Positions 1 to 1,552 are shown, numbered from the stretch's first letter. The stretch: 1,552 bases of DNA from Escherichia coli (GCF_013315695.1 NZ_CP054362.1); one strand, 5' to 3'. Translations and numbers: made by a program. The notes: generated from the sequence alone by a model not told the origin.

Positions 1-50
1 CCTGTCGCATCCAGGGTGACACAACGTTGTCGCATCCTGGATGCGACAAC
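1..50. repeat. Two tandem ~25-bp imperfect direct repeats (1-25, 26-50); the second unit is a perfect 25-bp palindrome (gttgtcgcatcc-t-ggatgcgacaac). Candidate Rep operator or iterons.
   Basis: Read directly: units 1-25 and 26-50 match at 19 of 25 positions. Arms 26-37 and 39-50 are exact reverse complements. Each unit has a CCWGG (Dcm) site at its centre (11-15 ccagg, 36-40 cctgg). Further GTTG/CAAC-type palindromic motifs lie at 21-30 (acaacgttgt) and 54-66 (caaca-agg-tgttg). The function is inferred from position upstream of the rep-like gene. Confidence 0.55.
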
Positions 51-63
51 ACGCAACAAGGTG

Positions 64-93
64 TTGCACAGATGTGTCATGATGGCTTAGATT
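64..93 (+). promoter_or_regulatory. Putative sigma70 promoter for the rep-like gene: -35 TTGCAC (64-69), 18-bp spacer, -10 TAGATT (88-93)
   Basis: Hexamers chosen by eye; 3/6 and 4/6 matches to consensus, with A2 and T6 of the -10 conserved. An alternative -35 is TTGAAC at 93-98, but it lacks a good -10. Not supported by any transcript data. Confidence 0.3.
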
Positions 94-121
94 TGAACCA
101 ACGTTAGTGCATGGGATTTTT

Positions 122-127
122 AGAGGG
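122..127 (+). promoter_or_regulatory. Shine-Dalgarno sequence (AGAGGG) 8 nt upstream of the ATG at 136
   Basis: Purine-rich GAGGG core with standard spacing to the start codon. Confidence 0.6.
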
Positions 128-135
128 AAAAAATC

Positions 136-612
136 ATGTTTATTGATTCAGAAAAACGACTGAAACAACTTTCAGATGAGGCAAAGAAAAACACCGAGGA
201 TCTCGAAGAAGCAAAGAAGAATTCAAGGTTTACACAGGTATCCCCAAAAGGTTGGGAACGCGTTCGAGAGCTGCTGAAGGATAGCCAAGGCATATCAGCA
301 CTGAAGCTGTACTCATTTTTAGCGGAGCATATCGATCCTACGTGTGGCGCTGTCGTTGCGGATCAGCAATTCCTAGCTGAAAAACTTGGAGTTAGCAGAA
401 GCACAATTATTCGTTGGCTCAATTACTTAGAATCAAAAAATGCATTAGTTAGAATCCCCGTTGCTGGTAAGGTTTGTGCGTATGCCCTCGATCCACATGA
501 AGTCTGGAAGGGATACAACACTACGAAAAACCATGCAGCATTTGTCACTAAAACACTGGTCAACAAAGACGGTGATATTCAGCGCCGAATCATGGCCATG
601 TTTTCAAATTGA
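136..612 (+). CDS. repA: Small winged-helix replication initiator protein (RepA/RepL-like), 158 aa, about 18 kDa
   Basis: Only ORF with a proper RBS and ATG start, ending in TGA at 610-612. Its GC content is clearly lower than the downstream DNA. A helix-turn-helix motif is visible at residues ~77-100 (QQFLAEKLGVSRSTIIRWLNYLES, nt 364-435), followed by a wing-like beta region (VRIPVAGKVCAYALDPHEVWKG). Iteron-like repeats sit directly upstream. The Rep call and the symbol are inferred from architecture and motif resemblance, not from a search. Confidence 0.8.
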   Translation: MFIDSEKRLKQLSDEAKKNTEDLEEAKKNSRFTQVSPKGWERVRELLKDSQGISALKLYSFLAEHIDPTCGAVVADQQFLAEKLGVSRSTIIRWLNYLESKNALVRIPVAGKVCAYALDPHEVWKGYNTTKNHAAFVTKTLVNKDGDIQRRIMAMFSN

Positions 613-948
613 GCCAGCGGCAGGCGGACAATCAGGGGCTACGTGTTAACGTTCTGACCATGATTGTCTATCCTGCATTGCTCTTTTGCCGCCTCAAAAT
701 CCCTTGCGTGTTTTTGCTCCCCGATCTCCAGAACGACCGAGCCGCCACGGTTCCGGCAGCGCCTTGAGCGCAACCGGAAACCGTCTGGGGAGAACCCCAG
801 ACCCCCATCGCTGTAACACCGACGGTCTACGACCACCTACCAACCGAGTGACTGCCTGTACCGTGCAAATGGGCTTTGCAGGGGGCTGGCGCGGTTCCTG
901 GCGACCTGAAAGCCCCTGGCTAGGGGTATCGGCGCGCCTGACCTCCTG

Positions 949-969
949 AAACGCTCTGTAAGCGTTTTT
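949..969 (+). terminator. Hairpin aaacgct-ctgta-agcgttt followed by tt; weak candidate intrinsic terminator or single-strand structural element
   Basis: 7-bp stem (949-955 pairs with 961-967), 5-nt loop, T-run 965-969. The stem is AT-rich and lies ~340 nt downstream of the rep stop, so a terminator role is uncertain. Confidence 0.2.
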
Positions 970-979
970 CGCGCCTTCC

Positions 980-995
980 ATGCCCTGACGGGCAT
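980..995. other. Hairpin atgccc-tgac-gggcat (6-bp stem, 4-nt loop)
   Basis: Exact inverted repeat read from sequence; function unknown. Possibly part of a single-strand initiation or priming signal. Confidence 0.3.
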
Positions 996-1106
996 TTAAA
1001 CCCCGCCTCGTGCGTCTGAGAGCTTCTGAGCGCGTTTGAAGGGCTATCTGACGACTCATCCCCGAAAGAACAACAGCGGAATCACCGACAACATGCGAGA
1101 GGTGGC

Positions 1107-1168
1107 ACCGCTCGCCGCAGCCCCAGCGACCGAACGTTAGTGAGCGAGTGGGCGAGGAAGCGGAAGAG
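1107..1168. other. ColE1/pMB1-like conserved non-coding segment, matching the block just downstream of the ColE1 replication origin; candidate lagging-strand priming (primosome assembly) region
   Basis: accgctcgccgcagcc...gtgagcgag...gcgaggaagcggaagag closely matches the pBR322/pUC backbone sequence as I remember it. No RNA I/RNA II-like sequence precedes it. The priming-site function is an inference. Confidence 0.45.
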
Positions 1169-1204
1169 AACCGGAAACCACATTGAGCACGTACGCACTG
1201 ATAC

Positions 1205-1229
1205 GGGGTGTCGGGGCGAAGCCCTGACC
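1205..1229. repeat. Left arm of a perfect 25-bp inverted repeat (ggggtgtcggggcgaagccctgacc)
   Basis: Exact reverse complement of 1434-1458, separated by 204 bp. Confidence 0.9.
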
Positions 1230-1397
1230 AGATGGCAAACGGAATATCGTCGCGGGTGACGGTATTACATTTGCACATCCTGTCCCGATTTCTGCGGGGG
1301 TTAACGGTGAACGGACGGCAAAAAACGTGCAGGAGCTGTTGAACGTGAAAACCACGAAATCTGGCAAAAATCACGGCTGGCGAGGCTTGCAGAGGAG

Positions 1398-1458
1398 TAA
1401 GCCAGTATACACTCCGCTATCGCTACGTGACTGGGTCAGGGCTTCGCCCCGACACCCC
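1398..1458 (-). other. ColE1/pMB1-type oriT (bom) nick region; predicted nick on the minus strand near 1400-1403 (CTGG/CTTA on that strand)
   Basis: The minus strand reads gggtgtcggggcgaagccctgacccagtcacgtagcgatagcggagtgtatactggctta, nearly identical to the pBR322 bom/nic region as I remember it. Nick position is by analogy with ColE1 relaxase (MbeA) cleavage. No relaxase gene is present in the window. Confidence 0.6.
1434..1458. repeat. Right arm of the perfect 25-bp inverted repeat; this arm belongs to the ColE1-type bom/oriT homology
   Basis: Exact reverse complement of 1205-1229. The sequence corresponds to the bom-proximal pBR322 segment gggtgtcggggcgcagccatgacc with a few substitutions. 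Confidence 0.9.
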
Positions 1459-1460
1459 CA

Positions 1461-1489
1461 AAGGGCGTTGCGTTGCGCGCAACACCCTT
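1461..1489. repeat. Imperfect inverted repeat containing a perfect 12-bp palindrome GTTGCGCGCAAC (1472-1483)
   Basis: The 12-mer is self-complementary. Flanking aaggg (1461-1465) and ccctt (1485-1489) extend the dyad, with a duplicated gttgcg on the left arm. Confidence 0.7.
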
Positions 1490-1490
1490 G

Positions 1491-1552
1491 CCTAGAATAG
1501 ATCTTTTACGCCGATTTGTAAGTTGTTGTTTTTTTAGTGTGTTTTTTGTTTA
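1491..1552. other. AT-rich tract with T-runs; possible DNA unwinding element of the origin if the element is circular and joins to the repeats at 1-66
   Basis: Composition read directly (T7 and T6 runs, gttgttg motif). The origin role is an inference from its position next to the repeats across the putative circular junction. Confidence 0.3.

Follow-up and report, generated by a model that had tools for sequence, protein, structure and literature searches.

The stretch of DNA analyzed here (the window; Escherichia coli GCF_013315695.1 NZ_CP054362.1, 1,552 nucleotides, one strand) is very probably a whole pKL1-family cryptic plasmid, made up of a RepA replicon module and a non-coding accessory cassette. 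An earlier note, made from the sequence itself, had read the window as an entire single-gene circular replicon, and this interpretation was supported. The window matched many complete circular 1552-bp records (E. coli VR50 pVR50I, JJ1886, and others) at 100% identity over its full length, with the junction from position 1552 to position 1 intact. The note had asked for circularity to be checked; a 120-mer spanning this junction was internal in pVR50I and pMUB-MIN9-9, whose records start elsewhere, and rotating the records left 0 mismatches. The plasmid-database search that it had also suggested returned 334 PLSDB records matching the window over at least 80% of the window length, the best 40 of which were complete circular plasmids of 1552 to 1580 bp. 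The window (1 to 1552) is, in short, a complete circular plasmid of PlasmidFinder type Col(MG828), and its ends are an arbitrary linearization point.

The plasmid was carried by 292 of 5426 complete E. coli genomes (ca. 5%), and the near-full-length matches listed in E. coli genomes were separate records of ca. 1.4 to 1.55 kb. Copies with 100% identity were found in E. coli, E. fergusonii, K. pneumoniae, K. oxytoca, and Enterobacter hormaechei (counted as five species and four genera), which would point to recent cross-genus spread. Some records of the family look artifactual, namely, one of 54.7 kb with 22 matching places, a rearranged 2967-bp derivative, and pCR1, with a 65-bp deletion. However, that the window is itself an assembly artifact or a piece of a larger replicon is exceedingly improbable, and this reading is effectively already refuted: hundreds of complete assemblies, made independently in different laboratories and from different hosts, give the same 1552-bp circle with varied start points, and pKL1 itself is an isolated and sequenced physical plasmid. 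Judged by its sequence, the element is already known, a very common pKL1-family plasmid of E. coli with a single gene. The identification is therefore of little import in itself, pKL1-type plasmids having been known since 1997 and being routinely typed by PlasmidFinder. Burian and colleagues (1997, 1999, 2003) reportedly studied pKL1 as a 1549-bp “selfish” E. coli plasmid.

The single gene expected by the earlier note is repA (136 to 612, + strand), the sole ORF kept in relatives. Characterized by protein comparison, Pfam, and AlphaFold2, its product (158 amino acids, 17.96 kDa, pI 9.2; WP_000469298.1) has 100% amino acid identity with the RepA of pKL1 (E. coli KL4, 1549 bp, NC_002145.1), in agreement with the Rep of ca. 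18 kDa and the cryptic plasmid of ca. 1.5 kb that the note had named for comparison. The two genes differ at 4 nucleotides, all of them synonymous. pKL1, described as carrying repA only (PMC3526173), has the same gene content and overall order and a similar size. Its Rep/origin module is ca. 98.6% identical to that of the window, rep being preceded in both by an IHF box and by repeats taken to bind Rep, and of the 89 nucleotide differences between the two plasmids, ca. 10 fall in the replicon module and ca. 79 in the accessory module. RepA matched the Pfam family HTH_36 (3.5e-8) and, weakly, RepL, and its AlphaFold2 model predicts a long N-terminal helix and a winged-helix DNA-binding domain. 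Nothing above cutoffs was found for RepA in NCBIfam, and sequence and fold searches of the PDB yielded generic wHTH regulators only, so that no specific initiator fold was recognized.

Regarding expression signals, a Shine-Dalgarno-like GAGGG (123 to 127, + strand) can be read 8 nt before the ATG. The promoter that the earlier note placed between the repeats and rep was borne out in part: the sigma-70 consensus scan found no promoter, but there is a weak candidate at 64 to 93 (+ strand; −35 TTGCAC/TGCACA at 64 to 70, a 17-nt spacer, and −10 TTAGAT/TAGATT at 87 to 93). This candidate has 8 of 12 consensus positions, under the scan threshold, and aligns positionally with a better promoter (TTTACG-17-TATATT) in the relative L014, so we infer that the repA promoter lies here. 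Its −35 element is overlapped by a palindrome (53 to 67) and by a DnaA-box-like sequence, TGTTGCACA (62 to 70, 1 mismatch); in the origin, matches to the DnaA box were found only with 1 mismatch, as in this instance. The terminator consensus scan gave matches at chance level.

The origin had been placed across the ends of the window, and this is where the Rep-specific DNA was found. It corresponds exactly to 1464 to 1552 plus 1 to 135, because pMG828-1 (1902 bp, NC_008486.1, the type reference of Col(MG828)) shares window positions 608 to 1463 at 90% identity despite its diverged Rep (ca. 42% identical). At the very start, where the earlier note had seen repeats, there are two tandem 25-bp dyad repeats (1 to 50, that is, 1 to 25 and 26 to 50; half-site TGTCGCATCC), which are presumed RepA binding sites, acting as iterons and/or operator. 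Read as direct copies (3 to 25 and 28 to 50), they are 83% identical and 25 bp apart; the second dyad is perfect (arms 26 to 37 and 39 to 50), and the right half of the first is degenerate. In the relatives L011, L014, L015, L016, and L017, equivalent tandem dyad repeats, whose half-sites are particular to each plasmid, are equally far from rep, while L018 has dyads at the matching position and a repeat pair that scores weakly in the scan (12/20).

At the other end of the window, an AGAATAG motif (1494 to 1500) precedes an AT-rich tract in which there is an IHF-like box, the whole (1494 to 1552) being a presumed unwinding and bending region. As the note had it, the AT-rich tract is at the very end: the most AT-rich 40-mer of the circle starts at 1513 to 1514 (77.5% AT), tied with one starting at 116 to 117, where the ribosome-binding site and the start codon region of rep lie. 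The IHF-like box (1519 to 1531, minus strand, AAACAACAACTTA) has 1 mismatch versus WATCAANNNNTTR. When diverged origins are aligned, no block is better conserved than this box, TAAGTTATTGATTT, and the IHF consensus is perfect there in L014, L016, and L018. At the boundary with the accessory module lies a GC-rich palindrome, AAGGGCGTTGCG-TTGCG-CGCAACACCCTT (1461 to 1489; 12-nt arms, 1 mismatch), and palindromes were found at the equivalent position in L014 and L017. GTTG/CAAC motifs are concentrated in the 202-nt arc formed by 1461 to 1552 and 1 to 110, which holds 11 of the 23 occurrences versus ca. 3 expected by length (binomial P of 5e-5; when the arc was shuffled 1000 times with doublets preserved, 2 shuffles reached the observed count). 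Two of the clusters reported earlier, 1461 to 1489 and 21 to 66, are as placed, while the third is at 1522 to 1528 and not at 1527 to 1541. The layout is conserved, since six diverged relatives with differing repeat sequences keep the palindrome, the AT/IHF box, and the two dyad repeats upstream of rep.

Tandem repeats (1 to 50) adjoining an AT-rich tract (1513 to 1552) upstream of rep are the sequence pattern of an iteron origin, and according to PMC3832669, the oriV of pKL1 likewise precedes rep and includes an IHF box and sites bound by Rep. Most likely, we are dealing with an iteron-type, Rep-dependent theta origin. RepA, as an 18-kDa winged-helix protein, would presumably bind as dimers to the two 25-bp dyad repeats at 1 to 50, IHF would bend the DNA at ca. 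1519 to 1531, and RepA, aided by this bend, would open the adjacent AT-rich tract, where host replication proteins could then be loaded. RepA bound to the repeats might also autoregulate repA, because they are located just upstream of its weak promoter.

We weighed this scheme against one in which, in the same plasmid, RepA is a nicking initiator and replication is rolling-circle or mixed rolling-circle/theta, the conserved accessory core with its ssiA-like signal (see below) serving as the single-strand (lagging-strand) origin. The weak RepL match, homologues of 42 to 44% identity annotated as RepL, and the proposal that the pSN2/RepL family is rolling-circle all lean in that direction, as do the nearly invariant tyrosines Y116 and Y127, the palindrome (1461 to 1489) at the origin edge, and the orientation of the core relative to rep, fixed in 7 of 7 carriers as for a strand-specific element. 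A precedent is provided by the pHW126-like plasmids (pIGMS31 and pIGRK), which by description have a wHTH Rep that is small and lacks HUH motifs, iteron-like sites for Rep binding, autoregulation, and an ssi-like element that is not essential, and in this resemble what is proposed for the window, and yet RepM of pIGMS31 nicks DNA, with both rolling-circle and theta intermediates; these plasmids differ from the window in carrying a MobV relaxase. Nevertheless, we consider this alternative unlikely, given that RepA has no HUH, Rep_1, Rep_2, or Rep_trans signature in Pfam, that the origin layout, in which tandem repeats are combined with an AT-rich tract and an IHF box, is typical of iteron theta origins, and that the core is missing entirely from the smallest RepA-family plasmids.

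The plasmid has a two-module architecture. The Rep/origin module (1464 to 1552 plus 1 to 610, ca. 700 bp) has a GC content of 43.5%, and the non-coding accessory module (611 to 1463, 853 bp) one of 58.7%, and the two meet at the rep stop codon and at 1461 to 1463. The latter module shows ca. 90% identity with tiny plasmids of diverged or unrelated Reps. pMG828-1, for instance, shares all of it (ca. 90%) in the same orientation to rep but has a Rep whose homologues are annotated RepL, a different origin region, and an extra 95-amino-acid ORF. The earlier note had left 611 to 1463 uninterpreted; this 55% of the plasmid is a predicted mobilization/priming module. Comparison with pKL1 and pMG828-1 revealed no conserved ORF in it. 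An ORF of 226 amino acids (694 to 1374, − strand) was rejected as a gene because it is conserved in neither, pKL1 having only 110 amino acids there and frameshifting indels.

Within the accessory module, a non-coding core of 450 nt (751 to 1200, + strand) is highly conserved, with 88 to 100% identity per 25-nt bin among 8 plasmids. Its conservation exceeds that of rep, the origin, and both transfer origins, although the Reps of its carriers range from 100% to ca. 20% identical, and the core has one fixed orientation relative to rep in all seven carriers. The smallest RepA-family plasmids (1240 to 1488 bp), which are complete replicons, have no core, and RepA replication can therefore do without it. 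This shared core, and not the rep gene, appears to be what the Col(MG828) label follows; hence, plasmids with quite different initiators are typed alike. The global single-stranded structure of the core was not significant on either strand, and the window had no match among all Rfam families at an E value of ≤1, that is, no RNAI or other known RNA.

These data also bear on whether the core could be the real origin, ColE1-like and RNA primed, with ssiA and bom following it and RepA as a mere regulator. The ssiA-like signal and bom do follow the order and orientation seen in ColE1, no other DNA is as well conserved as the core among plasmids that differ in their Reps, and the Col(MG828) label is common to plasmids that differ in rep but have this core. 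Even so, a ColE1-like origin is very unlikely: besides the lack of an Rfam match, similarity to ColE1 is confined to 1107 to 1168 and 1398 to 1457 and begins downstream of the place expected for a ColE1 origin, the RepA-family plasmids of 1240 to 1488 bp are complete without the core, and PMC3832669 puts the pKL1 oriV upstream of rep. Unlike ColE1/pMB1, the window has no RNAI/RNAII origin, rop, or mob genes.

The function proposed for the core is limited to its 3′ part, where a ColE1 ssiA (n′-pas)-like single-strand initiation signal (1107 to 1168, + strand; invariant flanks CCGCTCGCCGCA and GAGGAAGCGGAA) is a presumed loading site of the PriA primosome. It has 82% identity over 62 nt with DNA ca. 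100 to 160 nt downstream of a ColE1-type origin (record L005), in line with the position of ssiA in ColE1 (PMC3167613), and its order and orientation relative to bom are the same in both. The spacing between the two elements grows from ca. 95 nt in ColE1/pMB1 to 230 nt in the window by insertion of an IncI-type oriT. IncX4 and IncX1 plasmids also have related DNA in their origin regions. A third oriT at 948 to 1165 was disfavored because the IncX copies adjoin a pir-type initiator gene, not relaxase genes. Folded as single-stranded DNA, the ssiA-like stretch gave a z score of −0.46 (no significant predicted structure), and compensatory changes in 4 of 17 pairs are too weak to count as evidence; its interior stem is GCCC…GGGC in the window versus GTCGAT…ATCGAC in pKL1. 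With replication starting at the AT-rich tract, a fork would have to move ca. 1.1 kb rightward through rep before the + strand signal was exposed, which makes a vegetative role uncertain.

The remaining 5′ two-thirds of the core (751 to 1013) is without described function, and thus the best-conserved stretch of the plasmid is mostly without assigned function, all proposals being confined to the 3′ end of 751 to 1200. The core is possibly a composite signal for single-strand initiation and establishment, or a multimer suppressor resembling the ssi of pHW126-type plasmids. The XerC/XerD core of a cer-like multimer resolution site was not found (allowing ≤6 mismatches in the core and ≤2 in the XerD arm).

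Downstream of the core there are two borrowed transfer origins in opposite orientations. The first, of IncI/R64 type (1202 to 1291, + strand), has 92% identity over 90 nt with the intergenic DNA of pSL476_91 directly upstream of nikA-nikB; over 1228 to 1291, the closest conjugative-plasmid allele is ca. 89% identical. It comprises a hairpin with an 8-bp stem (1210 to 1228), 17-nt inverted-repeat arms (1235 to 1251 and 1258 to 1274, the latter being “repeat A”), and a nick region, CATCCTG|TCCCG (1276 to 1287), with the predicted nick after G1282 of the + strand, a position placed by analogy with R64, for which it is established. The IncI-gamma locus has an identical nick region, CACATCCTGTCCCG; repeat A, GACGGTATTACATTTGC, differs from that locus at 1 of 17 positions, and the distal (left) arm, GCAAACGGAATATCGTC, is degenerate, complementing repeat A at 14 of 17. 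In R64, the oriT core for transfer consists of the nick region and the adjacent NikA-binding repeat A, according to PMC4743918, which cites Furuya and Komano (1997). As single-stranded DNA, 1202 to 1291 folds with a z score of −3.5. This oriT behaves as an indel cassette: it is absent in the record L006, a 1822-bp RepL-annotated relative of pMG828-1 lacks its core (1212 to 1300), and pKL1 has the same nick region with another repeat allele (GTAATCGTAT… versus GCAAACGGAATATCGTC/GACGGTATTACATTTGC).

The second is a ColE1-type bom (1398 to 1457, − strand), with 100% identity over 60 nt with a colicin N ColE1-type plasmid, ca. 90 bp beyond rop; relatives as small as 1240 and 1488 bp still have it. 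Its predicted nic, CTGG|CTTA (+ strand TAAGCCAG at 1398 to 1405), is presumably positioned as established for ColE1/pBR322. The two transfer origins share a 25-nt perfect inverted repeat (left arm 1205 to 1229, right arm 1434 to 1458), each arm being the native hairpin of one oriT type, so that the same sequence is native to both. This common hairpin may be a joint for swaps of oriT cassettes between helpers and tiny plasmids. A search for inversion isomers between the arms found no simple isomer, the sole full-length match being the rearranged 2967-bp derivative. The joint reading, in which the core is a portable, orientation-fixed cis element and the hairpin is a recombination joint for oriT cassettes, is quite unlikely in our estimation.

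As repA is the only gene, there is no gene for a relaxase or coupling protein, which would make this a helper-dependent, relaxase-less pOriT. The accessory cassette would allow the plasmid to spread through the relaxosome and pilus borrowed from co-resident plasmids. Since the IncI-type nick is on the + strand, the + strand would be the one transferred, carrying the ssiA-like signal, which could prime complementary-strand synthesis in the recipient. More than half of the DNA in these one-gene plasmids thus consists of predicted cis-acting transfer and priming signals, and with oriT alleles differing between close relatives, they offer a compact natural system in which to follow how relaxase-less plasmids keep pace with their helpers. 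A framework for pOriTs is available (PMC10123127), and mobilization of such plasmids by means of a borrowed oriT has been described for pEC156 by R64 (PMC4743918) and for pBuzz with a B/O plasmid (PMC9282650 and PMC11389934). pEC156 and pBuzz were mobilized by co-resident I-complex or F plasmids, whereas for the window, mobilization is predicted from the sequence, the identical copies in five species being indirect evidence of transfer. In pEC156, oriTs of the F and R64 types sit on a ColE1-type replicon, compared to the RepA replicon with R64-type and ColE1 bom-type oriTs in the window. pBuzz (1982 bp; Moran and Hall 2019) is, like the window, tiny and relaxase-less, with two borrowed and inversely oriented oriTs, but it is described as rolling-circle, and the match to the window in a 1982-bp record is a single stretch of 32 nt.

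The search against plasmid records that the earlier note had suggested returned, from 72,556 records in PLSDB, 334 with at least 80% coverage of the window. The 40 records ranked highest, pVR50I and the small plasmid of JJ1886 among them, were complete, circular molecules of 1552-1580 bp with 99.9-100% identity, and the hosts among the top matches were E. coli, E. fergusonii, Klebsiella pneumoniae, K. oxytoca, and Enterobacter hormaechei. Matches to the window were split into two pieces because the records begin elsewhere on the circle. A 120-mer crossing 1552→1 was found uninterrupted within pVR50I and pMUB-MIN9-9, both of which, once rotated, showed 0 mismatches to the window. 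At least 80% of the window was also present in 292 of 5426 complete E. coli genomes; among the matches listed, those near full length were to separate records 1.4-1.55 kb long, and those on chromosomes were short and partial only. Together, the full-length circular records, the intact junction, and the separate E. coli records indicate that the window is the whole replicon and that its ends are an arbitrary cut; the same evidence makes an assembly artefact very unlikely. What the earlier note had observed was confirmed, and its interpretation as an entire circular single-gene replicon was supported.

The plasmid is already known, as it belongs to the pKL1 family. The resemblance to very small Rep plasmids of Enterobacteriaceae that the earlier note had proposed was correct: pKL1 (NC_002145.1; 1549 bp) encodes the same protein, WP_000469298.1, which is annotated on pVR50I too. 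The translation of the window gene was 100% identical to it, with four nucleotide differences in the gene, all synonymous. pKL1 has been cited as a natural plasmid of 1549 bp (PMC12839544) and called "selfish," with repA as its only gene (PMC3526173). Another record, NC_004833.1 ("Corynebacterium renale plasmid pCR1," 1488 bp), proved to be the window plasmid at 99.8-100% identity with 225-289 deleted within repA, a 65-bp loss expected to shift its reading frame. It seems doubtful that pCR1 came from an actinobacterium; contamination or a cloning artefact is likelier.

The sole convincing ORF of the window was located at 136-612 on the plus strand (158 amino acids), the GC-rich second half having none, and its product, RepA, has a mass of 17.96 kDa and a pI of 9.2. 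Pfam assigned HTH_36 to RepA at 3.5e-8, plus a weak RepL match, while no NCBIfam model reached its cutoff and a PDB sequence search returned no solved structure related in sequence. The AlphaFold2 model, for which the input alignment had 29 sequences, displayed a long N-terminal helix (residues 5-28), a winged-helix domain at ca. 37-118 (block-mean pLDDT of 73-93), and a low-confidence C terminus. Foldseek comparison of this model with the PDB gave nothing at E ≤ 0.001; its hits were all generic winged helices (MarR, ArsR, and CodY). The RepA family comprised 690 clusters at 90% identity, nearly all from contigs of 1-4 kb. RepA is presumably autoregulated, and DNA polymerase I is presumably not needed for replication. 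Some E. coli plasmids of 70-118 kb (H139-H141) carried a partial RepA homolog annotated as an HTH protein (amino acids 44-157; 74% identity), which may be a remnant of cointegration with a pKL1-family plasmid.

The iteron-like repeats and the AT-rich tract that the earlier note had placed at opposite ends of the window were both recovered: direct repeats lie at 3-25 and 28-50 with a spacing of 25 bp, the second being a perfect dyad, and the most AT-rich 40-mer of the circle begins at 1513. GTTG/CAAC words were enriched as described, with 11 of the 23 falling in the arc 1461-1552 plus 1-110 (versus ~3 expected; P = 5e-5), a count attained by 2 of 1000 doublet-preserving shuffles, although one of the three clusters had been misplaced by ~5 nt, its position being 1522-1528 instead of 1527-1541. 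Despite a Rep of just ~42% identity, pMG828-1 has window 608-1463 at 90% identity, and 611-1461 is also common to other tiny plasmids. Given this sharing of a module with diverged-Rep plasmids, the DNA accompanying this Rep is exactly 1464-1552 plus 1-135, in agreement with an origin-like module that spans the window ends. In six plasmids whose Reps share 57-81% identity with RepA, the origin layout was kept at matching distances from the ATG, although the repeat sequences were quite different. Its order was a GC palindrome (ca. -215), an AGAATAG-like motif, the AT-rich tract, and two tandem dyad repeats of 25-26 bp, the half-sites of which vary among plasmids. Within the AT-rich tract is the box TAAGTTATTGATTT; on the complementary strand it matches the IHF consensus perfectly in three of these six plasmids, and with one mismatch in the window, at 1519-1531. 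Such a conserved layout would be expected of Rep-specific binding sites beside a host-factor-assisted unwinding region. The weak point of this origin model is the promoter: a consensus scan revealed none, and the best candidate (64-70/87-93) has just positional homology to a better promoter in L014, a relative with a diverged Rep.

We favor a reading in which the origin would be of the iteron type, with RepA-dependent theta replication. The main rival, rolling-circle or mixed replication as for the wHTH Rep of pIGMS31, appears unlikely to us; it draws on the weak RepL affinity of RepA, the palindrome at the origin edge, and an ssi-like module with fixed orientation, while Pfam found no rolling-circle nuclease domain in RepA.

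Beyond this replicon module (GC content, 43.5%), the accessory module at 611-1463 (58.7%) has no conserved ORF and is built as a mosaic of cis-acting elements, which was absent from the reading in the earlier note. A predicted IncI-type oriT at 1202-1291 was 92% identical to the DNA immediately upstream of nikA-nikB in an IncI-gamma/K1 conjugative plasmid, the place where oriTs of this type are located. Its parts are a hairpin with an 8-bp stem, an inverted repeat of 17 nt, and a CATCCTG|TCCCG nick region, and its single-stranded folding was far better than that of shuffled sequence (z = -3.5). In the opposite orientation, a ColE1-type bom/oriT at 1398-1457 shared 100% identity with the bom site, just past rop, of a ColE1-type colicin plasmid, and an ssiA-like signal at 1107-1168 was 82% identical to the colicin plasmid ~100-160 nt downstream of the origin, with the order and relative orientation of both elements the same as there. 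The ssiA of ColE1, a PriA primosome assembly site, has been placed at the corresponding downstream position (PMC3167613). Judging by homology and synteny, these elements are predicted transfer and priming sites. The window also has a perfect 25-nt inverted repeat (1205-1229 and 1434-1458) because both oriT types natively hold the same hairpin element of 24-25 nt, GGGTGTCGGGGCGAAGCCCTGACC; native copies lie at 3004-3028 in L004 and at 2537-2560 in L005, a colicin N plasmid, and at least one derivative has a rearrangement junction at this hairpin. In a 54,741-bp E. coli plasmid record, NZ_CP019265.1, the ssiA/hairpin/bom query gave 22 separate matches; this record may consist of concatenated small plasmids or have arisen by misassembly.

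When eight tiny plasmids with Reps of 100% to about 20% identity were compared, the best-conserved DNA was a GC-rich, noncoding core of 450 nt (ca. 751-1200; 88-100% identity per 25-nt bin), better conserved than rep or either oriT and constant in orientation relative to rep. Roughly 800 records bear the core. Segments of it recur in IncX4, IncX1, and IncX-like plasmids, where they lie in noncoding origin DNA a few hundred base pairs upstream of a pir-type initiator gene. A Xer site was rejected, as none was found in the core, and so was a known RNA, in the absence of any Rfam match; no global single-stranded DNA structure was found. Plasmids of 1240 and 1488 bp, the smallest of the RepA family, lack the core and keep bom, and therefore the core is not needed for RepA replication. 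Both the missing Rfam match and these coreless plasmids render a ColE1-like RNA-primed origin inside the core very unlikely. Read most economically, the core would be an accessory cassette for single-strand initiation, a role for which homology support is limited to the 3' third, with the ssiA-like stretch. A parallel is found in pHW126-like plasmids, where an ssi-like element is nonessential and its loss leads to multimers (bioRxiv 10.1101/2022.12.05.519187). We regard the conserved core as a modest lead. Sizes in the RepA family go down to the 1240 bp of L016 (NZ_CP109928.1), which has kept rep, the origin layout, and a ColE1-type bom only. The short, hairpin-containing CGCCTTCCATGCCCTGACGGGCAT (972-995) recurs in either orientation at several places in the IncX4 plasmid L008 (102-130 and 1979-2008) and as a perfect 24-mer at 837-860 in L017 (CP058003.1), an otherwise unrelated RepA-family plasmid of 1306 bp.

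Records matching the window were typed as Col(MG828) and "mobilizable." The Col(MG828) label (PlasmidFinder/MOB-suite) was also carried by plasmids (L006, L009, L013, L014, and L023) with quite different Reps and a common noncoding core; the type seems to follow the accessory DNA, not the replication gene. No relaxase gene was found on the plasmid, which places it in the "pOriT" class (PMC10123127). Direct precedents for mobilization of such plasmids are pEC156, mobilized by R64 via an R64-type oriT just 83.9% identical to R64's own (PMC4743918), and pBuzz (1982 bp), which has two oriT copies and is mobilized by a B/O plasmid (PMC9282650; PMC11389934).

Of the 89 positions at which the window and pKL1 differed, ~79 fell in the accessory module, clustering at 1101-1300, against ~10 in the replicon module. 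Over 1202-1300, they share the nick region and differ in the alleles of the preceding inverted repeat (accessory-protein binding), while L006, a 1822-bp relative, lacks 1212-1300 entirely; the oriT therefore behaves as an exchangeable cassette, another modest lead. Conjugative plasmids in PLSDB had no oriT allele closer than ~89% to that of the window. A further relative, p22MO52E (L023; NZ_CP138471.1; 2967 bp), consists of an L014-type plasmid of 1565 bp plus ~1.4 kb of extra DNA, which includes an additional inverted ssiA-like stretch and hairpin joined to bom.
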